64,000 bases of DNA from Xanthobacteraceae bacterium (GCA_049646625.1 JBARWE010000219.1:4361-68360); one strand, 5' to 3'. Shown: positions 23,615 through 34,959, counted from the stretch's first letter. Numbers and translations are program-made. Notes: generated by a model not told the origin, from the sequence alone.

Positions 23615-24859
23615 TTAAGCCGCTCGCGGGCTGGCGCCACCTATCGTCATACGGCGACGCATGACCAGGATGCCGATCAGCGTGGCATGCGCGGCGTTCA
23701 CCGCCAGTCCAGCGGCGAAGGCCGGCGCATAATAGCCAAAGTAATCGTAGATATATCCGGCGAGCCAGCCGCCGGTCGCCATGCCGCTACCGGAGCACAA
23801 TAGCAACAGCGGGATGCGCCACGCTGCTTCGCGCGCCGGAAACATCTCGCGCACGACCAGGATGGTCGCCGGGATCAGGCCGCTGAAACCGAGGCCGAAG
23901 ATCGCGGAGGCGGTGAACAGGCCGTATTCGTCCTGGACGATCAGGAAGGCGCTGATGGTAACGAGCTGGGTCACCGAGCCGAGCATGACGGTACGCAGGC
24001 CGCCGATCCTGTCGGAGATTCTGCCCCAGACCTGGCGAAAAACGAAGGCGCTGCCGAGCAACACCGATAGCATCAGGGCGCCGTGCGCGGCGCTGATGCC
24101 GAGATCACCACAGAAGGCGACGATGTGCTGCTGCGGCATCGCCATTGGCACGCAGCACATGAAGATCGCCGCCATTAACATCGCAAATACCAGGTTCGGC
24201 GGCCAGCCGAGGACCGCCCTGCGCATCGGCACAGTCCCCACCTTAAGGGAGGGATCGGTCCGCTCGGGTGCCTTGGCCAGAAAGACAAAGGCGAGCGGCA
24301 CGATCACCAGCACCTCGATGATCCCGTAGGCCATCATGCTGTCGCGCCAGCCATAGAGGCTGATGGCACGCTCGAAGAACGGAGGCCACACTGCGCCGGC
24401 GACGTAGATGCCGCTGGAAATCAGCGCCAGTGCAGAGCCGCGGCGGTGATCGAACCAGCGGCTGACATAGACATAGAGCGGCGCATTGATACCGGCGAGG
24501 CCGAGCAGTCCGATAAACAGGCCATGCCCGACATACAATGGCCAGCCCGGACCAGCACTTGACAGCATCAGCCCGCAGGCGATCATCAACGCGCCGCCGC
24601 TCACGGTCCAGCGCACCCCGATGCGCTCGGCGACGTAACCCATCGCAATCCCGCCGAAGCCGGACCCGAACCATGCCAGCGCTCCGGCGAGCGCCGGCAC
24701 CGCCCGCACCCCGCCTGCTTCCTCAGCGATCGGCTGCAGTGCCACCGTGGTCAGCCAAGGCGCCCCGAACGAGAACGCCAAGATGCCGAGGGTGACGAAG
24801 GCCACCGTCCACGAGCGGCGCGATTCGATCGAAGCTGGGGCAGGAGAGGTTTGCAGCAT
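23615..24859 (-). CDS. MFS transporter
   Basis: 414 aa with about 12 hydrophobic segments and two-halves symmetry. Confidence 0.85.
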   Translation of the reverse strand: MLQTSPAPASIESRRSWTVAFVTLGILAFSFGAPWLTTVALQPIAEEAGGVRAVPALAGALAWFGSGFGGIAMGYVAERIGVRWTVSGGALMIACGLMLSSAGPGWPLYVGHGLFIGLLGLAGINAPLYVYVSRWFDHRRGSALALISSGIYVAGAVWPPFFERAISLYGWRDSMMAYGIIEVLVIVPLAFVFLAKAPERTDPSLKVGTVPMRRAVLGWPPNLVFAMLMAAIFMCCVPMAMPQQHIVAFCGDLGISAAHGALMLSVLLGSAFVFRQVWGRISDRIGGLRTVMLGSVTQLVTISAFLIVQDEYGLFTASAIFGLGFSGLIPATILVVREMFPAREAAWRIPLLLLCSGSGMATGGWLAGYIYDYFGYYAPAFAAGLAVNAAHATLIGILVMRRRMTIGGASPRAA

Positions 24860-25032: not shown

Positions 25033-26442
25033 TTAGACGAAGGTGATCGTTTCGGTCATTTCCAGAATTCTCCGCAGCTCGATCAACGCGCGCTCGAGAT
25101 CGCTCTCTGCCGGATGGCCAAGGCATAGTCGCACGCCAAGCGTGCTGCGGTCGATCTGCTGCAAAGCGCCCGGCGGCGCCAAGGTGATGCCGGCATGCGA
25201 CGCCTGGGTGATCAGGCTGTTGAGCATGCGTCCGGCCGGCAGCGGCAACCAGCGATGGAAGCCGGGCTGCGACAACAGCGGCGGCAGCCAGTCCCCCAAA
25301 GTGCGATCGGCGATAGCGTTGCGAACCATCGCCTTGTCGCGCTTGCGACGGACCTGCTCGGTCAGCGCGCCGTTGTGGATCAGGCGCGCGACCACCTCGG
25401 CCATCAACGGCGTCGCCATCCACCCCGTCGCGCGGATACCGTTGTTGCAGCGGTCGCGATAGGCGGCAGGCGCGATCATGGCCGCAATCCGCAGGCCCGG
25501 CGCCAAGCATTTGGCGAGGCTGACCACATAGAAGCTGCGGTCCGGGATACGCAAGGAGATCGGACGTGGCGGCGCCGCAAACAAGGAGGCGTAAGCGTCG
25601 TCCTCGATCAGGTAGGCGCCGTGCTTGCGGACGATCTCGGCCACGACATCGCGCCGCTCTTCAGACATCACCGTGCCTGTCGGGGTCTGCAGCGTCGGCA
25701 TGCAGAACAGCACGCGCGCGCCGGTCTCGTGAAAGGCGCGGTCGAGCGCATCCGGAACCAGGCCGTGCGCGTCGGTTGCAACGCCGCGTAAACGGTAGCC
25801 GTTCTGCGCAGCAAGCGCGATCATGCCGGAATAAGTGAACATTTCGGACAGGATGGTGTCGCCGTTCGCCGCCACCATGCCGAATGCCACCGCCAGCCCG
25901 TGCTGGCCGCCATGGGTAATGAACAGATGGTCGGCGTCGGCAGCGATGCCGAGCGATGCCATCCACGCGGCAATCGCCGCACGGTGCCGCGGCAGGCCCT
26001 GGTGCGGCAGATAGCCAAGCAGGTTGGCCATCTCTCCCTCGGCGGCGATGTCCGACAGAACGTTGGCGATGACCGTGTCCTCGCCGGTGTAAGGCGGGAC
26101 GTTAAGCGCAAGATTGACCGTCAGGCTTGCGGCGTCGTGGCCGTTGTGGCGTTGCGGCTGGCGGCGCTGGACGAATGTGCCACGGCCGACCTCGCCAGAA
26201 ATCAGGCCGCGCAACTCGGCCTCGGCATAAGCCTTCGAGATGGTGCCGACGCTGAGCGACAGCCGTTGTGCCATCTCCCGCTGCGGCAACAGCCGCATGC
26301 CCGGCTTGACGCGCCCGCTGCTGATGTCCGCTTCCAGCGCCGCAACAAAGGCTGCGTAGCGCGGACTATTATCCCGTGGAAGGGTCGGCACCCAGTCGGT
26401 CATATCAGTTTGCGCCTGCTTGTTCGCCCGACGGATGGACAA
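25033..26442 (-). CDS. MocR/PdxR-type regulator (GntR HTH fused to an aminotransferase class I/II fold)
   Basis: N-terminal HTH: LPQREMAQRLSLSVGTISKAYAEAELRGLI. The long C-terminal PLP-fold domain includes VVSLAKCLAPGLRIA. The start may be ATG 26403. Confidence 0.88.
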   Translation of the reverse strand: MSIRRANKQAQTDMTDWVPTLPRDNSPRYAAFVAALEADISSGRVKPGMRLLPQREMAQRLSLSVGTISKAYAEAELRGLISGEVGRGTFVQRRQPQRHNGHDAASLTVNLALNVPPYTGEDTVIANVLSDIAAEGEMANLLGYLPHQGLPRHRAAIAAWMASLGIAADADHLFITHGGQHGLAVAFGMVAANGDTILSEMFTYSGMIALAAQNGYRLRGVATDAHGLVPDALDRAFHETGARVLFCMPTLQTPTGTVMSEERRDVVAEIVRKHGAYLIEDDAYASLFAAPPRPISLRIPDRSFYVVSLAKCLAPGLRIAAMIAPAAYRDRCNNGIRATGWMATPLMAEVVARLIHNGALTEQVRRKRDKAMVRNAIADRTLGDWLPPLLSQPGFHRWLPLPAGRMLNSLITQASHAGITLAPPGALQQIDRSTLGVRLCLGHPAESDLERALIELRRILEMTETITFV

Positions 26443-26570
26443 AAGTCGATTGGTTCAATCTCGGGATTGCCGCAAGATAACTGTGACAATTCTGAAAATC
26501 CATGGATAGCCGAACGACGACGGCCTTTGAGTAGTGGACAGTACAGGTTAATCACAGTGCATTGCACCTA

Positions 26571-26584
26571 TTGAACCGGTTCAA
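26571..26584. promoter_or_regulatory. Perfect 14-bp palindrome TTGAACCGGTTCAA in an AT-rich intergenic region, candidate operator
   Basis: Read from the sequence. It sits next to a second palindrome, GTGCAtTGCAC (26557-26567), and upstream of TTGACA (26620-26625)-N17-TTACTT (26643-26648). Confidence 0.4.
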
Positions 26585-26689
26585 ATCAACATAAAAAATC
26601 TTATTGCATCGTTTTTTGTTTGACAATCTCTCATTTATTTCCTTACTTGCACTGGAACATAATAATGAACCGCTCAGGAGGAGCGCGCC

Positions 26690-27016
26690 TTGATCTATGA
26701 AATCCGCATCTATGAGGCCTCCGAGAGCAACGCGCCGGCTATGCGCGCCCGGTTCTATAACCACGTCGCAAAAACCTTCTTTCCGCGTCACGGTATCGAG
26801 TTGGTTGGTGCATTCACGGCGCCGGTCGAGGATGGCCGCCTGGTCTACATGACCCGCTTTGCCAGCGATGAGGCACGCAAGACGGCGTGGGCTGCGTTCG
26901 CCGCCGACCCGGAGTGGGGCACCCTGAAGAAAGCCAGCGAGGTCAATGGGCCGCTGCTTAAGAGCCAGACCATTACGGTATTAACCCCTGCCATGGCCGG
27001 CCTGCCGCTCGCCTGA
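26690..27016 (+). CDS. NIPSNAP family protein
   Basis: 108 aa. MIYEIRIYE ... is the typical NIPSNAP start. The TTG start is preceded by AGGAGGA. Confidence 0.75.
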   Translation: MIYEIRIYEASESNAPAMRARFYNHVAKTFFPRHGIELVGAFTAPVEDGRLVYMTRFASDEARKTAWAAFAADPEWGTLKKASEVNGPLLKSQTITVLTPAMAGLPLA

Positions 27017-27082
27017 GAGATATTTGGGCAATCGATCGTCGGCGGGGCTGGCGGTCGGATCCAGATTGAAAGAAAGGTCGTC

Positions 27083-27967
27083 ATGAAGCCCGCTCCCTTC
27101 GATTATGTTCGTCCTGAAACGCTGGCGCAGACCTGCCAGCTGCTGGCGGCGGACGAGAATGCGCGGGTTATTGCCGGTGGGCAGACGCTGGTGCCGATGC
27201 TAGCAATGCGTCTCGCCCGCCCAACGCAACTGATTGATATTTTGCGCATTCCCGGCCTGTCCGGAATTCGGGCCGAGGGCGGGACTGTGGTCGTCGGCGC
27301 TACCACGCGACAGGTCGAGGCCTTGCACAGTCCAGTGATCCATGCATCCGTGCCGCTGCTGGCGCAGGCTCTGCCGTGGGTCGGACATCCGCCGACCCGC
27401 AACCGCGGCACGGTCGGCGGCTCGCTTGCCAATGGCGATCCGTCCGCCGAGATCCCGCTGGTGGCGGTGACACTCAATGCCGACATCGTGCTGGCGACGA
27501 CGGCGGGCGAAACGGCGATATCGGCCGATGACTTCTATATCGGGCCGATGCTGACGGCGATCGACGTCGGCCAGTGCGTCAGCGCCGTGCGTTTCCCGGT
27601 CTGGAGCGAACGCCGGATCGGCGTCGGCTTCCAGGAGATCAGCGCCCGCAAATCCGACTTTGCATTCGTCTCGGCCGCCGCCCAGGTCGCGCTCGACGAC
27701 GGGGGCCGCTGCACGGCGATCGTCGCCGGTATCGGCGGCGCCGCCGAACGGCCGACACGGCTCGACCTGTCGCAGCTTATCGGCATGCACCTCGAGGAGG
27801 CGACAGTGACCGAGGCTGTCGCCGCAGCGACAGCGGACATGGAGACGATGACCGACCTGCACGCCAGCGCCGCCTATCGCCGCCGCGTGGCGACCGCAAT
27901 GGGCGCGCGTGCGGTGCTCGACGCCGCCCGCGACGCCGGCGAGAACGACAAGGGCATTGGACGATGA
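27083..27967 (+). CDS. FAD-binding medium subunit of a xanthine-dehydrogenase/CODH-family molybdenum hydroxylase (CoxM-like)
   Basis: 294 aa. FDYVRPETLAQ ... AGGQTLVPMLAMRLARP ... HPPTRNRGTVGGSLANGDP. Confidence 0.88.
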   Translation: MKPAPFDYVRPETLAQTCQLLAADENARVIAGGQTLVPMLAMRLARPTQLIDILRIPGLSGIRAEGGTVVVGATTRQVEALHSPVIHASVPLLAQALPWVGHPPTRNRGTVGGSLANGDPSAEIPLVAVTLNADIVLATTAGETAISADDFYIGPMLTAIDVGQCVSAVRFPVWSERRIGVGFQEISARKSDFAFVSAAAQVALDDGGRCTAIVAGIGGAAERPTRLDLSQLIGMHLEEATVTEAVAAATADMETMTDLHASAAYRRRVATAMGARAVLDAARDAGENDKGIGR

Positions 27968-28467
27968 GGGTTGAACTCCGGGTCAATGGGCTGCCGCGCA
28001 GCGCCGACGTCGAGCCGCGCAAGACGCTGCTCGACGTGCTGCGCGACGATTTTCGTCTGACCGGCGCCCATGCCGGCTGCGAGCACGGCGTTTGCGGCGC
28101 ATGCACCGTGCTGCTCAACGGCGATGCGGTGCGCTCGTGCCTGATCTTTGCGGTGCAGGCCGACGGCTATGATATCACCACGATCGAGGGACTGGCGCCA
28201 TCGCCGGGCGAACTCAGCGTCATTCAGGATGCGTTCTGCGAAGCGCATGGCCTGCAGTGCGGCTATTGCACGCCGGGCATGATCTTGAGTGCGCATACGC
28301 TGTTGCAGCGGACGCTGACGCCAACACGCGAAGATATCGTTGAAGCGATTTCCGGAAACATCTGCCGCTGCACCGGCTACGGCCAGATCGTCGAGGCTGT
28401 CGAGATCGCCGCCGAGCGGCTGAGGCAATCCAATACGCAGGGGATCTCGCGCGAGGTTGCGAAATGA
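27964..28467 (+). CDS. [2Fe-2S] small subunit of a molybdenum hydroxylase (CoxS-like)
   Basis: ATGA overlap with the upstream gene. Cys motifs CEHGVCGACTV, CGYCTPG and CRCTGY. Confidence 0.92.
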   Translation: MRVELRVNGLPRSADVEPRKTLLDVLRDDFRLTGAHAGCEHGVCGACTVLLNGDAVRSCLIFAVQADGYDITTIEGLAPSPGELSVIQDAFCEAHGLQCGYCTPGMILSAHTLLQRTLTPTREDIVEAISGNICRCTGYGQIVEAVEIAAERLRQSNTQGISREVAK

Positions 28468-30857
28468 GTGCGCCGGTTAACTTGCGCTTTGTCTCGCGTA
28501 ACCGCCGCGTCCGTGAGGACCGCCGCTTCGTCACCGGCAATGGCTGCTACGTTGCCGACGTCGCGCTGGCCGACGTTCTGCACGTCGCGCTGGTGCCATC
28601 GCAGTACCCGGCAGCGCGCATCGAGGCGATCGACATCAGCGCCGCACAGGCAATGCCAGGAGTACATTACGTCCTGCTCGGCGAGGAACTGGCGGCCGCT
28701 ACCGATCCGCTAATGAACGGTCTTCACACGCCCGAGGTGAAGCGCTATCCGCTCGCCGTCGGCCAGGTCCGCTACGCCGGCGAGTGGGTCGCCGCCGTGG
28801 TGGCCGACAGCCGCGCGCAGGCCGAAGACGCGGCGGAGCGGGTCCGCGTAACCTACCAGCCGCTGCCGTTTGTCATCGATCCAGAAGAAGCGCTCAAGCC
28901 GGACAGCCCGGCCGTCCATTCGGCTCACGGCTCGAATGTCCTGCTCAACAAAACTTTTGTCTGGGGTGATGTCGACAAGCATTTCGCCGAGGCCGAACGC
29001 ACGCTGTCATTCCGCGTCACCTGGGGCCGCAGTTCGACCGTGCCGATCGAGACTTTCGGCGTCGTCGCGTCGTGGAATCCGTGGCGCGAGGTTCTCGATG
29101 TCTGGGCCTCGATCCAGATGCCGAAATACCCCGAGCAGGTCGCCCGCTCGTTGCGAATTCCGGCCAACAATGTTCGCGTCAATCAGGATATCGATGTCGG
29201 CGGCGCTTATGGCGTCAAGCGCGGCATCAAGCACACCATTCTGGTCGCGTACCTGTCGCGCCGACTCGGACGCCCGGTTCGCCTGATCGAGGATCGCCTC
29301 GAGAATATGCGCGCGGGCGACGCGCAGGGGCCGGAGCGTATCTTCGATGTCGATCTCGCCTTCAATACCGACGGCCTGATCAAATCGATGAAGATGCGGG
29401 CGCTCGACAATGCCGGAGCCTATGCCGGCCGCGCGCCATTCCAGCTCGGCAAGCCGATCGGTGCCATCGTCGGGCCTTATCGTATCGAGAGCGTCAAATA
29501 CGTCGCCCAGTCCGTCACCACCAACAAGGGTGTCGAGGAGGCGGTGAAGGGTTTTGGCCAGTCGCCAACCAACTACGCAATTGAGACGGCAATCGAGAAG
29601 GTCGCGCAAGCCACCGGCCTCGACCGCATCGAAGTGCGCCGGCGCAACTTCATCCGTAAGGAAGAGTTTCCTTACCTCATTCCCAGCGGCACCCGCTACG
29701 ACAGCGGCGACTATCACGGCATGGTCGACAAGGTGCTAACCCACGTCGATTACCCGGCGCTGGTGCGCGAGCGTGACCGGCTGCGTGCCTCGGGCCTGCT
29801 CGCCGGCATCGGGCTTGCGGCCTGCCTTGAGCCGAGCGGCGGTAACTCCGCGTTCGAGCCGTTGCTCAATGAAAGGAACAAAACCTCGACCTGGATGGAC
29901 TCCTGCCGCATCAATGTCGACGGTGCCGGCTATCTCAGCGCGACCATCCACACGCTGTCGTCCGGCCAGGGTCACGAGACGCTCGCCGCCACGGTGATCG
30001 GCGAAGTTCTGGAGATCAATCCCGACCTGATCCGCATCGTGCGACCCGACTCGCTCGCCTGCCTGCCGTCCAACGCTCCGGTCGGCAGCCGCATGGCGAT
30101 CATGCTCGGCGGAGCGGCATTCCATGCCGCGCGCAAGCTCAAGGAAAAGCTCGTTGCTATTGCCGCGCAACAATTCGGCGTTGCCGCTGGGGAACTGACC
30201 TACGCGAACGGCGGCGTATCGCATGCGGCAAGCAGCAAGCGGCTGGATTGGGCCGACCTCGTCAACATCGCCCATCGCAACTACCACCTTCTGCCACCAG
30301 GTATGGAGCCGGGCCTCGAAACCACGCATGTGATGCAGGTGCCGACCGGCACCAAGCTGCCCGAGAACGGCCGCGTGCAGATGTATCCGTGCCACTCGTT
30401 CGAGTTTCACGTCGTACTGGTGGCGATAGATCCGATCCTCGGTAAGCCGGAGATCCGTCGCTATGTCATCGGCCATGATTGCGGCACGATTATCAATCCG
30501 CACATCGTCAAGGGCATGACCCTCGGCGGCATCGCCCACGGCATCGGCGCGGCGCTGTTTGAGGAATTCGTCTACGACGAGCAGGGCCAGATGACGACGC
30601 AGAGTCTAATGGATTATCTGCTGCCCTCATCGCATGAGGTGCCACAGGTCGAGATCGTGCACCAATGCACGCCTTCGCCGCATACCGTCTTCGGCCAGAA
30701 GGGCGCTGGCGAGAGCGGCTATATGGGAGCACCGGCGGCGATGTCGGGCGCCATCAACGACGCCGTCAGTGCGCTCGGCATTTCCTTCGTCAAACTGCCC
30801 ATCCGCATTTCAGCCATCGGCGATGCCATCGCCGAGGCGCAATCAACCAAGGCATAA
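28464..30857 (+). CDS. Molybdopterin-binding large subunit of a molybdenum hydroxylase (CoxL-like, not a CO dehydrogenase)
   Basis: 797 aa with aldehyde-oxidase/XDH a/b-hammerhead and Moco domains. The loop reads NAGAYAGRAPFQ, where form I CODH has VAYRCSFR. Confidence 0.88.
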   Translation: MSAPVNLRFVSRNRRVREDRRFVTGNGCYVADVALADVLHVALVPSQYPAARIEAIDISAAQAMPGVHYVLLGEELAAATDPLMNGLHTPEVKRYPLAVGQVRYAGEWVAAVVADSRAQAEDAAERVRVTYQPLPFVIDPEEALKPDSPAVHSAHGSNVLLNKTFVWGDVDKHFAEAERTLSFRVTWGRSSTVPIETFGVVASWNPWREVLDVWASIQMPKYPEQVARSLRIPANNVRVNQDIDVGGAYGVKRGIKHTILVAYLSRRLGRPVRLIEDRLENMRAGDAQGPERIFDVDLAFNTDGLIKSMKMRALDNAGAYAGRAPFQLGKPIGAIVGPYRIESVKYVAQSVTTNKGVEEAVKGFGQSPTNYAIETAIEKVAQATGLDRIEVRRRNFIRKEEFPYLIPSGTRYDSGDYHGMVDKVLTHVDYPALVRERDRLRASGLLAGIGLAACLEPSGGNSAFEPLLNERNKTSTWMDSCRINVDGAGYLSATIHTLSSGQGHETLAATVIGEVLEINPDLIRIVRPDSLACLPSNAPVGSRMAIMLGGAAFHAARKLKEKLVAIAAQQFGVAAGELTYANGGVSHAASSKRLDWADLVNIAHRNYHLLPPGMEPGLETTHVMQVPTGTKLPENGRVQMYPCHSFEFHVVLVAIDPILGKPEIRRYVIGHDCGTIINPHIVKGMTLGGIAHGIGAALFEEFVYDEQGQMTTQSLMDYLLPSSHEVPQVEIVHQCTPSPHTVFGQKGAGESGYMGAPAAMSGAINDAVSALGISFVKLPIRISAIGDAIAEAQSTKA

Positions 30858-30868
30858 GAGTTACGCTT

Positions 30869-31843
30869 ATGATTATCGACTGCCACGCCCACCTCGTCCC
30901 GCCCAGCCTGCTTGATGCGATGCGTGCGCAGGCGGCGCAGTTTCCCTCGGTCCGCCTGATCGAGGACGGCGGTAGCCTCGCCTTCTCGTTTGCCGGTGGC
31001 AAGCCGACGCGGCCGGTCTCCAAAGGGTTGAGCGACATTCCAGCACGGCTGCGCTGGATGGATGAGCAGACTATCGATCGCCAAGTCAATGGCGCATGGC
31101 TTGATATGTTCGGCTATGAAATTCCCGCCGCGGAAGGTGCGCGCTGGTCGCGGCTGATTAACGAGCATCTTGCCCGTACCGCCAAGGCCGAGCCGCGGCT
31201 GCTGGCGCTGGCGACCGTGCCGCTGCAGGATGGCGCGGTGGCAGCCGAGGTGCTGCGCGAGGCGCACGGCAACGGCTTCAAAGGCGTGATGATCGGCACC
31301 CAGCCCAAGGGCGTCGGCGGCGTGCTCGACGATCCGTCGCTGATACCATTCTGGGAGACCGCCAACGAGCTTGGCTCGGTCGTCTTCATCCATCCGGTGT
31401 TCGAAAGCGGCGACAACCGCGTCCACGACTATGGCATGGCCAACGCCGTCGGCCGCATCACGGATACGCTGATCGCGGTGTCGCGCCTGATCTATGCCGG
31501 CCACGTCACGCGCTACGCCAACACACGAATAGTTGTCGGCATCGGCGGCGCGGCGCTGCCTTACGTCGTCGGCCGGCTGCGGCGCAACTTCACCGTCAGC
31601 AAGGACAAGCTCGGCGACCCCGATGCGGCGCTGGCGGTGCTCTATTACGACACTATCGTTCAGGATCGGCGTTCGCTGCGTTTTCTCGCCGACGTCGTCG
31701 GCGCCGAGCGCATCATGATGGGTTCGGACATGCCATTCCCGATCGGCGATCTCGCGCCGCTTCAGATCGTTGCCGACACTGGCTTCTCCGAAGCGGAGTG
31801 TCGCGCCATCAATGGCGGACTCGCCGCCCGGCTGTTGGCCTGA
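30869..31843 (+). CDS. Amidohydrolase_2 family protein (ACMSD/LigW-type metal-dependent decarboxylase or hydrolase)
   Basis: Starts MIIDCHAHLVPP (HxH metal motif). Also FIHP and a later D ligand context (MGSDMPFP). Confidence 0.82.
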   Translation: MIIDCHAHLVPPSLLDAMRAQAAQFPSVRLIEDGGSLAFSFAGGKPTRPVSKGLSDIPARLRWMDEQTIDRQVNGAWLDMFGYEIPAAEGARWSRLINEHLARTAKAEPRLLALATVPLQDGAVAAEVLREAHGNGFKGVMIGTQPKGVGGVLDDPSLIPFWETANELGSVVFIHPVFESGDNRVHDYGMANAVGRITDTLIAVSRLIYAGHVTRYANTRIVVGIGGAALPYVVGRLRRNFTVSKDKLGDPDAALAVLYYDTIVQDRRSLRFLADVVGAERIMMGSDMPFPIGDLAPLQIVADTGFSEAECRAINGGLAARLLA

Positions 31844-31858
31844 CCGGCGGAGATACGC

Positions 31859-32326
31859 ATGAAGCTCGATATTAGCGGAACAGAAACGATCGCGTCTCCG
31901 GTCGAAGTGGTTTGGCAGGCGCTCAACGATCCACAAGTGCTGACCCGCTGCGTTCCCGGCTGCAAGGCAATGACCGAAATCGCTCCCGATACTTATAAGC
32001 TTGATATGCAGTTGCGAGTTGCCGCGGTGTCCGGTTCGTTCGAGGGCGAAATCAGCCTGTTCGACAAGGCGCCGCCGACCGTCTGCAACATCAAGGTGTC
32101 CGGAGCCGGAACGCTCGGTCATGGCAACGGCACAGCGCGTTTTGAACTGACCGCCGACGGCGACGCCGCCGCGCGCCTCACCTATCAGGGCAGTGGCGAG
32201 ATCGGCGGCCTTGTCGCCGGCGTCGGCCAGCGCATTCTCAGTAGCGTTTCCAAGCATCTGATCGGCCGGTTCTTCACCGCCCTGCGCAAGGAGTTCGAAC
32301 CGTCGATGGACAAGACCGCGACCTAA
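31859..32326 (+). CDS. CoxG-like SRPBCC (carbon monoxide dehydrogenase subunit G family) protein
   Basis: 155 aa. VWQALNDPQVLTRCVPGC ... SGSFEGEISL parallels the coxG product at 35337-35978. Confidence 0.82.
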   Translation: MKLDISGTETIASPVEVVWQALNDPQVLTRCVPGCKAMTEIAPDTYKLDMQLRVAAVSGSFEGEISLFDKAPPTVCNIKVSGAGTLGHGNGTARFELTADGDAAARLTYQGSGEIGGLVAGVGQRILSSVSKHLIGRFFTALRKEFEPSMDKTAT

Positions 32327-32414
32327 CGCGGCGGACGATCCGCCGCGACGATAGGAGGCCGGTGAGACGTAACGACACTGCAGTCATAATGAACTGAACA
32401 AAGGGAGGGCTATC

Positions 32415-33386
32415 ATGAAGAAAATTCTATTCGGTCTTGCTGGATTCGCGACGGTATTGTCGCTGTCTCCTGCGTACGCGCAAACACCGGTTCCGCTGTC
32501 GATCGTCGTATTCGGTCCGCCGTCGCTCGGCGCATTCCTGCCGCCGGTTATCAAAGCCCATAAGCTCGATGAGAAACACGGCCTTGCCATCAAGTTCGAG
32601 GAGCGGACGCCGGACGCTTACGCCGCACAGTTCAACTCCGGTGAGTTTAAGCTCGGCGGTAGCGCGGCGCTGCTCACCGTCGGGCTTGCCGATACGCGCG
32701 GCATCAAGGTGACCTACCTGTTCAACCTGTTCGACTTCTGGGGCGCGGTGGTGACGTCGCGGTCGGACATCAAGACGGTGAAGGACCTCGAAGGCAAGGA
32801 TATCGCTGCGGCGAAGGGGACCACCAACTATGTGATGTTCGAGTGGTTCGCGCGCCAGCTCGGCGCCGATCCGTCGAAGTTCTCGGTGGTCAACACGGCA
32901 ACGCCGGGTCTCGTCGGCTACGCGATGGCCGACCGCGCCACTGCCATCCAGCTCTGGGAGCCAGCCTACACCACGTTGATCACGCGCAAGCCGGACATCC
33001 GCACCATCGATCTGCATATCGCCGATCGCTGGAAAAAGTTCACCGGCAGCACCAACATTCCCTATCTCGGCGTCGCCGCGCATATCGACTGGGTTAAGAA
33101 GAATCCTACCCTGGTGTCCAAGTTGTACGCTGCCTACAAGGACGCCGCCGAGTGGGTCGCGGCCAATCCCGATGAGGCAGCAAAGCTGATTGCCGCCAAG
33201 GGCACGGACGAACAGCGCCAGGCCATCGCCACGCTCATTCGCGCTAATAACCGGCTCGGTATGAACGTCAAGTGGGCGTCGGACGTGAAGAAGGAAATCA
33301 CGCAGGTTTACGCGGCGGGCAAATCGTCGTCGTTCCTTGCCTCTGATCCCGACAGTTCGACCATCTACCAGGCTTCCGGAAAATGA
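32415..33386 (+). CDS. NitT/TauT-family ABC substrate-binding protein (NMT1/THI5-like)
   Basis: Signal peptide MKKILFGLAGFATVLSLSPAYAQ. It is followed by a cognate permease and ATPase. Confidence 0.78.
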   Translation: MKKILFGLAGFATVLSLSPAYAQTPVPLSIVVFGPPSLGAFLPPVIKAHKLDEKHGLAIKFEERTPDAYAAQFNSGEFKLGGSAALLTVGLADTRGIKVTYLFNLFDFWGAVVTSRSDIKTVKDLEGKDIAAAKGTTNYVMFEWFARQLGADPSKFSVVNTATPGLVGYAMADRATAIQLWEPAYTTLITRKPDIRTIDLHIADRWKKFTGSTNIPYLGVAAHIDWVKKNPTLVSKLYAAYKDAAEWVAANPDEAAKLIAAKGTDEQRQAIATLIRANNRLGMNVKWASDVKKEITQVYAAGKSSSFLASDPDSSTIYQASGK

Positions 33387-34195
33387 CCGGTTCCACGCAG
33401 ACGATGCCGTCGCCGCAGCTTGCTACGCTGGCTGCGACGGCCAAGCGGGTGGGGTCGCTGGCGCTGCCGTTTATCGCTGTCGCCGTGGTCTGGCAGATTG
33501 CCGGGCTGTTTTTCCCGCGGTTCCTGTTTCCGTCGCTGATCGACGTCTTCTGGCGCTGCGTCGAAATCCTGGTGACCGGCTCCATGCTGAGCGACGTCAT
33601 TGCTACCGTGCTGCGCATTCTTGGCGGCCTGGTCGGCGCGTTCGTCTGCGGCAGCCTGGTCGCGCTGGTAATGGCGCGATCGGCGGCCGCCGATCGCTTC
33701 CTGGCGCCGATCCTATCGTTACTTCAGGGCATTCCTGCGCTGTCCTGGGTGGTGTTCGCCATCATCTGGTTTCATGGCATCGAGTTCCGCATCTTCTTCA
33801 TCATGGTGGTGACGACGCTGCCGGCATTCACGTTCCAGGTGCTAGGCGCGCTGCGGGCGATGTCCAAGGACCTGACCGAGATGGTGCTCAGCTTCCGGCC
33901 GACACGCATGAAGCTGTTCCGTGCGATGATTCTGCCGGCAGTGCTGCCGGACATCCTGACTGCCTGGAAGGTCAACCTTGGTAATGCGTCGCGCGTCGTC
34001 GTCGTCGCCGAACTGGTCGGCGCCACCGGCGGCATCGGCTATGAGCTTCTTCAGCAGCAACAACTCTTTGATATGGCGGGAGCACTCGCATGGACGCTGC
34101 AAATCGTGTTTTTTGTGCTGATTATGCAGACGGTGTTGACCCTGATCGAGAACACGGCCTTCCGCTATCGCGCGGTGTCGGAGCGCTCGATGTGA
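33383..34195 (+). CDS. NitT/TauT-family ABC permease
   Basis: 270 aa, hydrophobic, BPD_transp_1 type. ATGA overlap with the SBP gene. Confidence 0.85.
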   Translation: MTGSTQTMPSPQLATLAATAKRVGSLALPFIAVAVVWQIAGLFFPRFLFPSLIDVFWRCVEILVTGSMLSDVIATVLRILGGLVGAFVCGSLVALVMARSAAADRFLAPILSLLQGIPALSWVVFAIIWFHGIEFRIFFIMVVTTLPAFTFQVLGALRAMSKDLTEMVLSFRPTRMKLFRAMILPAVLPDILTAWKVNLGNASRVVVVAELVGATGGIGYELLQQQQLFDMAGALAWTLQIVFFVLIMQTVLTLIENTAFRYRAVSERSM

Positions 34196-34959
34196 GCTAC
34201 ACCCTCAACGATGCAGGCGTGGCGATCCATCTTGGCGGGGTGTCCAAGATCTTTGGCAAGGCCGGCAGCTCGACGGCATTCCGCGCCGTCGATGATCTCG
34301 ATCTCGATGTGCGCTCCGGCGAAATGCTGGCGGTGCTTGGCAAGACCGGCTGCGGCAAGTCGACCATCTTCAATATGGTTGCCGGCCTGACCGAGCCGAC
34401 GAGCGGCACCGTTCGCGTCAACGGCCACGACCCGTTCAAGAACTTCAACGCCTTTCGCGGCGAAATCGCTATCGTATTTCAGGGCGATCGGCTGTTGCCA
34501 TGGCGGACCGCGCTCGCCAATGTCGAGCTTGGGCTTGAGATTCTCGACATGCCGGCCAAGGAGCGGCGCGACATCGCGCAGCTCTGGCTGACCAAGCTCG
34601 GACTAGATGGCCATGAACGCGATTTCCCGCACGCGCTGTCCGGCGGCATGCGCCAGCGCGTCTCGATCGCCCGCGCCTTCGCTACCAATGCGAGTATCCT
34701 GTTGTGCGACGAGCCATTCTCGGCGCTCGATGAGATTACCGCCAACCGTCTGCGCGGCGAGTTTCTCAAGCTCGTCAAGGAAAACGGCAAGACCGCTGTT
34801 TTCATCACGCACTCCATCAACGAGGCGCTGCAGATCGGCGATCGCATCGTCGTGCTGAAACGGCCGGCCAAGATCGCCTACGACGTCAATCTCGCCAATG
34901 CCACAGCGGCCGACAAGCAGGCGATCCGTGAGCGGATCGAGGAAATCCTGTCAGCGTGA
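34192..34959 (+). CDS. NitT/TauT-family ABC ATP-binding protein
   Basis: GTG overlaps the permease stop. Walker A GKTGCGKST, signature LSGGMRQR, Walker B LLCDEPFSALD. Confidence 0.88.
   Translation: MSYTLNDAGVAIHLGGVSKIFGKAGSSTAFRAVDDLDLDVRSGEMLAVLGKTGCGKSTIFNMVAGLTEPTSGTVRVNGHDPFKNFNAFRGEIAIVFQGDRLLPWRTALANVELGLEILDMPAKERRDIAQLWLTKLGLDGHERDFPHALSGGMRQRVSIARAFATNASILLCDEPFSALDEITANRLRGEFLKLVKENGKTAVFITHSINEALQIGDRIVVLKRPAKIAYDVNLANATAADKQAIRERIEEILSA

Follow-up and report, generated by a model that had tools for sequence, protein, structure and literature searches.

To our knowledge, the sole bacterial route for 2-furoate runs via coenzyme A (CoA) esters. Hydroxylation of the CoA-bound acid and the lactone chemistry that follows have been described, and D. 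shibae is a confirmed furfural degrader whose HmfA protein is 54% identical to that of C. basilensis HMF14 (PMC3223595). In the Cupriavidus sp. LA-1 system, an amidohydrolase-2 protein beside a molybdenum (Mo) dehydrogenase was reported that can be a ring-contracting isomerase (PMC12391406). Here, a ten-gene unit is compared with these and other described systems. The unit lies in a 64,000-nucleotide stretch of DNA, referred to as the window, from a Xanthobacteraceae bacterium (GCA_049646625.1 JBARWE010000219.1:4361-68360). It is composed of nine co-directional genes on the + strand (26690-34959) and a divergent MocR gene on the - strand, and it combines a three-subunit Mo hydroxylase, an amidohydrolase_2 protein (AH2), and an ATP-binding cassette (ABC) importer (Table 1). 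The unit is best explained as a self-contained, MocR-controlled uptake and funnelling operon. The reading preferred here, tentatively and with a probability of roughly 0.45, is that it serves the CoA-free degradation of a five-membered heteroaromatic carboxylate, with 2-furoate or 2,5-furandicarboxylate (FDCA) as the probable substrate.

Genes in the window were called from an open reading frame (ORF) listing and from Pfam domain matches. The nine + strand genes encode a NIPSNAP-family protein, the medium (M), small (S), and large (L) subunits of the hydroxylase, AH2, a CoxG/SRPBCC protein, and the binding protein, permease, and ATPase of the importer. This order had been proposed, along with overlapping or short junctions, in an earlier note on the window, and both were recovered: neighboring genes overlap by 4 nt at four junctions and are separated by 66, 11, 15, and 88 nt at the others, and the same set of genes surrounds AH2 in the 88 loci described below. 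The starts of the 2Fe-2S subunit (27964), AH2 (30869, or the GTG at 30860), and the ATPase (34192) sit within longer mechanical ORFs. The importer is a complete NitT/TauT-type set of one NMT1/SsuA-like binding protein, one permease, and one ATPase (Pfam, NCBIfam). None of the proteins of the unit reached an NCBIfam equivalog cut-off.

A scan of species-representative genomes with AH2 identified at least 399 related stretches, the best 80 of which were examined; together with loci obtained otherwise, they made up a set of 88 loci, where the count of accessory genes extended 10.5 kb from AH2. Wherever the contig was long enough, which was in 75-78 of the 88 loci, both the M-S-L-AH2 block and the ABC importer were found. 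The coupling of a Mo hydroxylase to an ACMSD-type AH2 and an ABC importer, as claimed in the earlier note, was hence confirmed as a genetic linkage, and the possibility that AH2 belongs to an unrelated transcript found no support, as its gene always adjoins that of the large subunit in the compared loci. Carriers included Bradyrhizobium, Afipia, Nitrobacter, Pseudorhodoplanes, Azorhizobium, Xanthobacter, Aquabacter, Reyranella, and Ferrovibrio, as well as metagenome-assembled genomes of Beijerinckiaceae and Methylobacteriaceae. Among the carriers in culture are B. canariense GAS369, Afipia massiliensis DSM 17498, Afipia sp. Root123D2, Azorhizobium doebereinerae UFLA1-100, Aquabacter spiritensis DSM 9035, and Ferrovibrio xuzhouensis KCTC 42182. 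The flanks of the module varied from locus to locus, and in Ferrovibrio (L077) and one further locus (L092) the same genes occurred in a different order, a re-ordering that points to a functional link between them and not to synteny by descent. Chance is far from sufficient to account for the arrangement, and the unit is under selection.

The distribution of the module was patchy, with eight carriers among 401 genomes of the order, the genome of the window included. A complete 7.3-Mb genome of the same family encodes two module copies of AH2 (C1 5037232-5038200 and 5924314-5925282; 79% and 81% identical), and one of these copies (L094) includes a PcaD-like gene. The genome of the window is a 3.3-Mb assembly that is 88% complete, and its DNA was found in activated-sludge metagenomes of many studies. 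It contains 12 matches to large subunits of the xanthine oxidase family (contigs C23, C60, C131, C139, C190, C216, C218, C219, and C224); 11 are near full length, and the total is unusually high for a genome of this size.

The three subunits carry the features of the xanthine oxidase/Mo hydroxylase family, namely a FAD subunit, a two-[2Fe-2S] subunit, and a molybdenum cofactor subunit with hammerhead and MoCoBD domains (Pfam, each above the gathering score). In the large subunit, the catalytic Glu (GAGESGY) and the active-site Gln (IQMPKY) are intact and align with the CoxL and HmfA-type positions. The protein is not a CO dehydrogenase (CODH): the Cu-binding Cys loop of form I enzymes is missing, and the score against TIGR02416 was 437 bits versus a cut-off of 991. 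The earlier note had likewise recognized a non-CODH hydroxylase of the xanthine oxidase family. That conclusion stands, while the motif comparison behind it does not, since in an alignment to the form I CoxL of the window itself the loop VAYRCSFR corresponds to EAVK--GFGQSP of the large subunit and not to AYAGRAPFQ. Orthologues of the large subunit have AVRGFGQ at the active-site loop. Form II CoxL-like proteins are characterized by the loop AYRGAGR; here the loop is AVKGFGQ, and in a tree that contained no verified form II reference the protein fell into the HmfA superclade, apart from the clades with CoxL.

The closest functionally assigned relatives of the large subunit are the HmfA-type 2-furoyl-CoA dehydrogenases. 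Its phmmer scores were 518 and 468 bits to the HmfA-type proteins of D. shibae and G. kaustophilus, compared with 330 to the neighboring CoxL; among solved structures, it was at a similar distance from all of the best matches, with 375 bits to CutL, 371 to quinoline oxidoreductase (Qor), and 335 to Kdh. It shares 36-38% identity with both HmfA-type proteins, while the FAD subunit is 37-39% identical to HmfB-type and the 2Fe-2S subunit 50-54% identical to HmfC-type proteins. The loci of Burkholderia, D. shibae, G. kaustophilus, and C. basilensis used for comparison were obtained by a plasmid tblastn. A quick maximum-likelihood tree of 26 rows, which included the CoxL of the window and nine other paralogues of the genome, recovered the module large subunits as monophyletic (SH-aLRT 100), the Burkholderia protein among them. 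The module clade, a protein from a C. basilensis plasmid, and the HmfA pair formed one clade (SH-aLRT 99) that excluded the other paralogues of the genome, with the module and HmfA-type proteins as sister groups. A grouping with CoxL forms, which would have counted against the reading in the earlier note, was not seen in this tree.

Based on the phmmer scores and the tree, the large subunit belongs to the furoyl-CoA dehydrogenase superclade. It is no orthologue of HmfA, however, given its 36-38% identity to proteins that share at least 54% with one another in confirmed degraders. It is nevertheless the best HmfA match of its genome, which contains no closer HmfA homologue, and JGI names its homologues after the K-number for furoyl-CoA dehydrogenase. 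A tblastn search for HmfD and HmfE at the module loci returned a weak HmfD-like ligase match near one locus and no HmfE. On pDSHI01 of Dinoroseobacter shibae and pHTA426 of Geobacillus kaustophilus, the hmf cluster encodes L, M, S, an AMP-ligase, a crotonase, and UbiD, to which D. shibae adds UbiX. The CoxG of the module is 40% identical to a CoxG encoded between L and M in the G. kaustophilus cluster (L097 10307-10765). Part of the D. shibae HmfA, a protein of 983 aa (L096 8875-11826), also aligns with it at 67 bits and is apparently a fused SRPBCC domain. Given these two relatives, the partnership with CoxG seems to extend to this Mo-hydroxylase clade in general, beyond CO dehydrogenase. The C. 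basilensis protein, the nearest outgroup of the module clade in the tree, is encoded in an uncharacterized M-S-L-CoxG-XdhC cluster on pRK1-1 (L098 6487-17088), together with a GntR regulator, an AMP-ligase, and a thiamine pyrophosphate enzyme. The module itself has no XdhC gene; the genome has three XdhC-family genes outside it, including one in the cox cluster next to the module.

Human and Pseudomonas ACMSD were the top sequence matches of AH2 in the PDB, with the human enzyme best (5e-34). The structural model of AH2 (pLDDT 92.7) also had ACMSD as its top matches (TM 0.86-0.89), followed by IDCase, LigW, LigJ, and LigY. AH2 retains the metal ligands without variation (H6, H8, H175, and D287), and R48 and R236, the latter also invariant, align with the substrate-carboxylate arginines R47 and R235 of human ACMSD, a pair designated R51 and R239* for ACMSD-type decarboxylases. 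ACMSD additionally requires a catalytic His on strand 6. This residue (H228 of P. fluorescens ACMSD), described as an active-site residue with a dual role in the titles of PDB 4era, 4eri, and 4epk, is replaced by Ile in the AH2 of the window. Across the 88 loci, Ile occupies the site in 84 and Met, Val, or Thr in the others, and His was found in none, while more distant AH2 homologues retain HGG. The earlier note had called AH2 a decarboxylase: the ACMSD-type family assignment was upheld, whereas the activity is plausible rather than secure due to the loss of the catalytic His.

Among plasmids, no AH2 orthologue above 34% identity was found, and none of the distant homologues P0241, P0243, and P0244 adjoins a Mo enzyme. 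Two other AH2 contexts were encountered. On a metagenome contig (L005 367-4247), a 46%-identical AH2, also without the catalytic His, lies beside a TcuA-like FAD flavoprotein in place of the Mo enzyme. B. canariense GAS369 contains a second, unrelated Mo-hydroxylase/AH2 cluster about 73 kb from its module (L088, 2903000-2922999), which encodes M-S-L, a luciferase-like monooxygenase, a polysaccharide-deacetylase-like protein, an acyl-CoA-dehydrogenase-like flavoprotein, an AH2 (31% identical), and a Liv-type ABC system.

The genes accompanying the block varied in frequency among the 88 loci. The binding protein occurred in 77, CoxG in 53, NIPSNAP in 52, and a divergent MocR orthologue in 50, followed by a TctC-type receptor in 37 (in L090 succeeded by a TctA-family gene), a PcaD-like hydrolase in 20, UbiD in 11, UbiX in five, and an SSADH-like aldehyde dehydrogenase in three. 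In three lineages (L031, L091, and L080), the PcaD-like hydrolase scores above the cut-off of TIGR02427, the model for 3-oxoadipate enol-lactonase, and its best PDB match is PcaD (2xua, 1e-51). UbiD proteins were of two lineages, a 550-aa type with HmfF (6h6x) as its best PDB match and a 444-aa type that is 39% identical to the HmfF of D. shibae. A fuller arrangement, in L080, encodes UbiD-UbiX-NIPSNAP-M-S-L-AH2-CoxG-PcaD and an SSADH-like dehydrogenase on a single strand. No oxygenase family was recurrent among the neighbors of the compared loci. A variant was found on the Burkholderia sp. PAMC 26561 plasmid NZ_CP014310.1 (L095, 7496-17700), where a large-subunit orthologue of 61% identity is followed by an alpha/beta hydrolase and a crotonase-family protein in the place of AH2 and then by a long CoxG and XdhC; the SSADH-like gene is divergent, and the operon has no ABC importer.

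Taken together, the relationship to HmfA, the PcaD-type lactonase, the HmfF-like UbiD with UbiX, the SSADH-like dehydrogenase, and the lack of a recurrent oxygenase favor furan-type acids and lactone chemistry over the picolinate-type logic of hydroxylation followed by decarboxylation, which the earlier note had put forward and which is weakened accordingly. The most likely substrate would be 2-furoate, or FDCA in carriers of UbiD/UbiX, with pyrrole-2-carboxylate as a second choice; the latter is retained because a pyridoxal phosphate (PLP)-type MocR fits a nitrogen analogue somewhat better.

In the proposed route, the Mo enzyme would hydroxylate the free acid, and not its CoA ester, with water at the C-H beside the ring heteroatom, and the 5-hydroxy product would tautomerize to an unsaturated lactone. 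For furoate, this product would be the enol-lactone form of 2-oxoglutarate. Two continuations can be envisaged. In model A, AH2 would decarboxylate the 2,5-dihydro tautomer, a vinylogous beta-keto acid, in a PcaC-like manner to yield a C4 enol-lactone, which a PcaD-type lactonase would open to succinate semialdehyde for oxidation to succinate by the SSADH-like enzyme. In model B, AH2 or an alpha/beta hydrolase would hydrolyze the lactone to 2-oxoglutarate, while the dehydrogenase would oxidize furfural upstream. In either case, UbiD/UbiX would feed in FDCA in the manner of HmfFG. Neither CoA nor an oxygenase would be required, the latter because hydroxylation beside the heteroatom already gives a hydrolyzable lactone or lactam. 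The ACMSD-like pocket leans to model A. A fully specified version of it is doubtful, namely an undescribed CoA-independent, oxygenase-free furan-carboxylate route with Mo hydroxylation of free 2-furoate (derived from FDCA where UbiD/UbiX is present), a His-less ACMSD-derived decarboxylase acting on the lactone tautomer, a PcaD-type lactonase, and SSADH leading to succinate. Such a pathway would be the second one for furoate in nature, alongside the Trudgill route.

Several observations weigh against the furan-type reading. At 36-38% identity to HmfA, the substrate class of the large subunit may differ, and the reaction of an AH2 without the ACMSD His is uncertain. MocR regulators usually sense amines, which suits a nitrogen compound better than furoate. 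The copy of the module in the window has no PcaD, UbiD, or SSADH-like dehydrogenase, and the SSADH-like enzymes of its relatives score under the SSADH cut-off and could instead oxidize furfural. Additionally, the Burkholderia variant, with AH2 replaced by an alpha/beta hydrolase and a crotonase, leans to model B rather than A. The ligand cannot be read from the sequence, and the assignment rests on sequence comparison.

A less likely reading, though the strongest of the alternatives, is a six-membered N-heterocyclic carboxylate, such as quinolinate or another pyridine or pyrimidine (di)carboxylate, that would be hydroxylated next to the ring nitrogen, decarboxylated by AH2 to, for example, 6-hydroxypicolinate, and degraded by genes elsewhere. 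The similarity of AH2 to ACMSD, with both carboxylate-binding arginines present, would suit such a substrate, since by our own reasoning 6-hydroxyquinolinate is a cyclic analogue of the ACMSD substrate; the missing catalytic His, in turn, argues against a decarboxylation. A PLP-type MocR would suggest an amine or nitrogen compound as its effector. PicA and PicC provide a precedent, and the module carrier B. canariense GAS369 is listed among the holders of a pic cluster (10.1101/530550). In contrast, the large subunit grouped with none of the N-heterocycle hydroxylases compared (Qor and Kdh at 371 and 335 bits versus 468-518 for HmfA-type proteins), no ring-cleavage oxygenase or maleamate-pathway gene was recurrent in the compared loci, and the enol-lactonase, HmfF-like UbiD, and SSADH-like enzyme would have no role in a pyridine route. 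The binding protein, read in the earlier note as THI5-like and hence as a hint of a pyridine or pyrimidine ligand, is not specifically so: its matches in the PDB were remote, with SsuA, TauA, and THI5 all at E values of 5e-4 to 7e-3 (THI5 at 0.0057), and that argument therefore carries no weight. Its score against the NCBIfam SsuA_fam model was also far under the cut-off. The dipicolinate pathway was considered as a candidate and rejected, as it is Mo-independent.

The co-occurrence of a Mo dehydrogenase, an amidohydrolase-2-family isomerase, and a UbiD/UbiX decarboxylase in the lumazine degradation of Cupriavidus sp. LA-1 (PMC12391406) involves the same three families as the module. By analogy, the Mo enzyme would oxidize a fused or diaza heterocycle to a lactam, AH2 would act as a ring-opening or ring-contracting hydrolase or isomerase, and UbiD/UbiX, where present, would remove the resulting carboxylate. 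A changed AH2 reaction would agree with the loss of the decarboxylase His. This analogy is improbable, given that LuDH was reported as a separate xanthine oxidoreductase group (PMC12391406), while the module subunit groups with HmfA. The two-subunit DHLI, the GTP-binding helper, and the pterin deaminase are all absent here, AH2 is a single 324-aa ACMSD-like protein, and the enol-lactonase and the SSADH-like enzyme would be left unexplained. Xanthine-oxidase-family enzymes often oxidize aldehydes as well, and an aldehyde oxidoreductase, glyceraldehyde-dehydrogenase-like or oxidizing furfural or hydroxymethylfurfural, could produce the acid for AH2. The best NCBIfam matches of M and S were glyceraldehyde dehydrogenase beta and gamma, and the alpha subunit was the second-best match of L, yet the scores were far under the cut-offs (209 versus 350; 424 versus 790). 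Furthermore, importers of this type serve anions and polar solutes, and separate aldehyde dehydrogenases are recruited where an aldehyde step is needed, which makes an aldehyde substrate the least probable of the readings considered.

Regulation of the unit was addressed through the MocR protein and the region that separates its gene from NIPSNAP. The regulator has both the GntR helix-turn-helix (HTH) and the aminotransferase-like domain of MocR proteins, and a Lys in SLAK, read by eye, could carry PLP. Eight MocR-NIPSNAP intergenic regions from different genera were aligned (window 26443-26689; L001 5507-5755; L003 2033-2285; L090 5564-5847; and those of L078, L084, L068, and L094). A TTGAC(A) box, invariant in TTGAC, is followed 17 nt downstream by a -10-like hexamer pointing into NIPSNAP, and invariant ACAAT..ATTG..(G)CAAT boxes lie next to the mocR start. 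The TTGAC(A)/-10 pair is a candidate promoter, and the CAAT/ATTG boxes are a candidate MocR operator. The conserved promoter-like boxes support NIPSNAP as the first gene of the operon. A 14-bp palindrome of the window was not found in the other loci, and a simple promoter and terminator scan gave no signal above shuffles. Three RNA libraries from sludge yielded short contigs that match the window with full identity and cover parts of the M, L, binding-protein, and ATPase genes at a depth of 2-4, where DNA carry-over is possible; none of them bridges a gene junction, and the sole contig over the L-AH2 junction came from a run that is probably DNA.

The NIPSNAP protein was modeled with a pLDDT of 94 as a dimeric alpha+beta barrel. 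The nearest structures in a fold search were uncharacterized bacterial NIPSNAP proteins, followed by cofactor-less isomerases and oxygenases with ABM-type barrels, and a search of the PDB by sequence returned no match. A role as a lactone isomerase is a guess, as no muconolactone isomerase was among the top 50 of the fold search. Downstream of mocR and on the same strand, the window also contains an MFS transporter gene (23615-24859, - strand), which is probably outside the module because it was found beside the module in no other locus.

Table 1. Coordinates of the unit and its control region, counted from the first letter of the window.
Feature	Position	Strand	Basis
MocR-type regulator	25033-26442	-	Pfam GntR HTH + Aminotran_1_2 (class I/II aminotransferase-like domain)
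Control region	26443-26689	.	TTGACA -35 box, -10-like hexamer, CAAT/ATTG boxes
NIPSNAP-family small protein, first operon gene	26690-27016	+	Pfam NIPSNAP 1.7e-12; TTG start, AGGAGG 8 nt upstream
FAD-binding medium subunit (M)	27083-27967	+	FAD_binding_5 8.8e-44, CO_deh_flav_C
Two-[2Fe-2S] small subunit (S)	27964-28467	+	Fer2, Fer2_2
Molybdopterin large subunit (L)	28464-30857	+	Ald_Xan_dh_C, MoCoBD_1, MoCoBD_2
ACMSD-like amidohydrolase_2 (AH2), 324 aa	30869-31843 (or GTG 30860)	+	Pfam Amidohydro_2
CoxG/SRPBCC protein	31859-32326	+	Pfam COXG 1.4e-23
NMT1/SsuA-like periplasmic binding protein, NitT/TauT-type importer	32415-33386	+	Pfam NMT1 2.2e-15
ABC permease	33383-34195	+	BPD_transp_1; overlaps each neighbor by 4 nt
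ABC ATPase	34192-34959	+	ABC_tran 1.1e-34; GTG start overlaps permease stop

The module is real, widely conserved, and unstudied, and no paper describing it was found in the literature searched. It represents a Mo-hydroxylase-based heterocycle catabolic cluster whose composition is new and whose route probably is as well. Among compounds derived from biomass or related to bioplastics, furoate, furfural, and FDCA are major ones. If the furan-type reading is true, the module would constitute a new catabolic route that is compact, independent of CoA, and equipped with a dedicated importer and regulator, and it would offer useful parts, including a free-furoate hydroxylase, a new ACMSD-family activity, and a binding protein and regulator that could serve as sensors. 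Even if the substrate is another heterocycle, a widespread orphan Mo-hydroxylase clade and a His-less ACMSD-like clade are defined, with culturable carriers.

Of the described systems, the hmfABCDE/hmfFG furoate (Trudgill) pathway, known from C. basilensis HMF14 and P. putida Fu1 and represented by the D. shibae and G. kaustophilus clusters, includes the nearest assigned clade of three-subunit Mo/FAD/2Fe-2S enzymes. Further similarities are the CoxG partner, the UbiD/UbiX and aldehyde dehydrogenase of the fuller module versions, and a ring that is expected to open via a lactone. In contrast to hmf, the module has the order M-S-L rather than L-M-S, its large subunit is 36-38% rather than at least 54% identical, and the CoA ligase HmfD and HmfE are missing, while it includes NIPSNAP, an ACMSD-like AH2, a dedicated ABC importer and MocR regulator, and, often, a PcaD-type lactonase. 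The form I CODH CoxMSL, encoded in the neighboring cluster at about 35.3-42.9 kb, is of the same enzyme family and shares the M-S-L order and a CoxG gene; the module L is only 33% identical to its counterpart, belongs to another clade without the VAYRCSFR loop, and is accompanied by no CoxD/E/F genes.

With ACMSD and its subgroup (IDCase, LigW, LigJ, and LigY), AH2 shares the TIM-barrel fold, the metal ligands, and both substrate arginines. It differs in that it is 28-30% identical to ACMSD, has the strand-6 His replaced, does not keep the Trp of the ACMSD pocket, and is found in the context of a Mo hydroxylase instead of a 3-hydroxyanthranilate dioxygenase. The pic cluster of Alcaligenes faecalis JQ135 similarly unites a Mo hydroxylase (PicA) and an amidohydrolase_2 enzyme (PicC) in one catabolic cluster, but it also needs the PicB monooxygenase and the maleamate-pathway genes PicD-G, none of which is in the unit or recurrent nearby. 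Lumazine cluster I of Cupriavidus sp. LA-1 (LuDH, DHLI, and XCDC/UbiX), compared by its published description, likewise combines a Mo dehydrogenase, an amidohydrolase-2-family enzyme, and UbiD/UbiX; unlike the module, it has a DHLI of two small subunits, a GTP-binding helper, and a pterin deaminase, whereas UbiD/UbiX is present only in some relatives of the module. The logic proposed for the module resembles that of PcaC and PcaD in the beta-ketoadipate pathway, where a carboxy-butenolide is decarboxylated to an enol-lactone that is then hydrolyzed. The accessory lactonase of the module passes the PcaD model, although the window copy is without it, and the decarboxylase would be an amidohydrolase_2 rather than a CMD-family PcaC.

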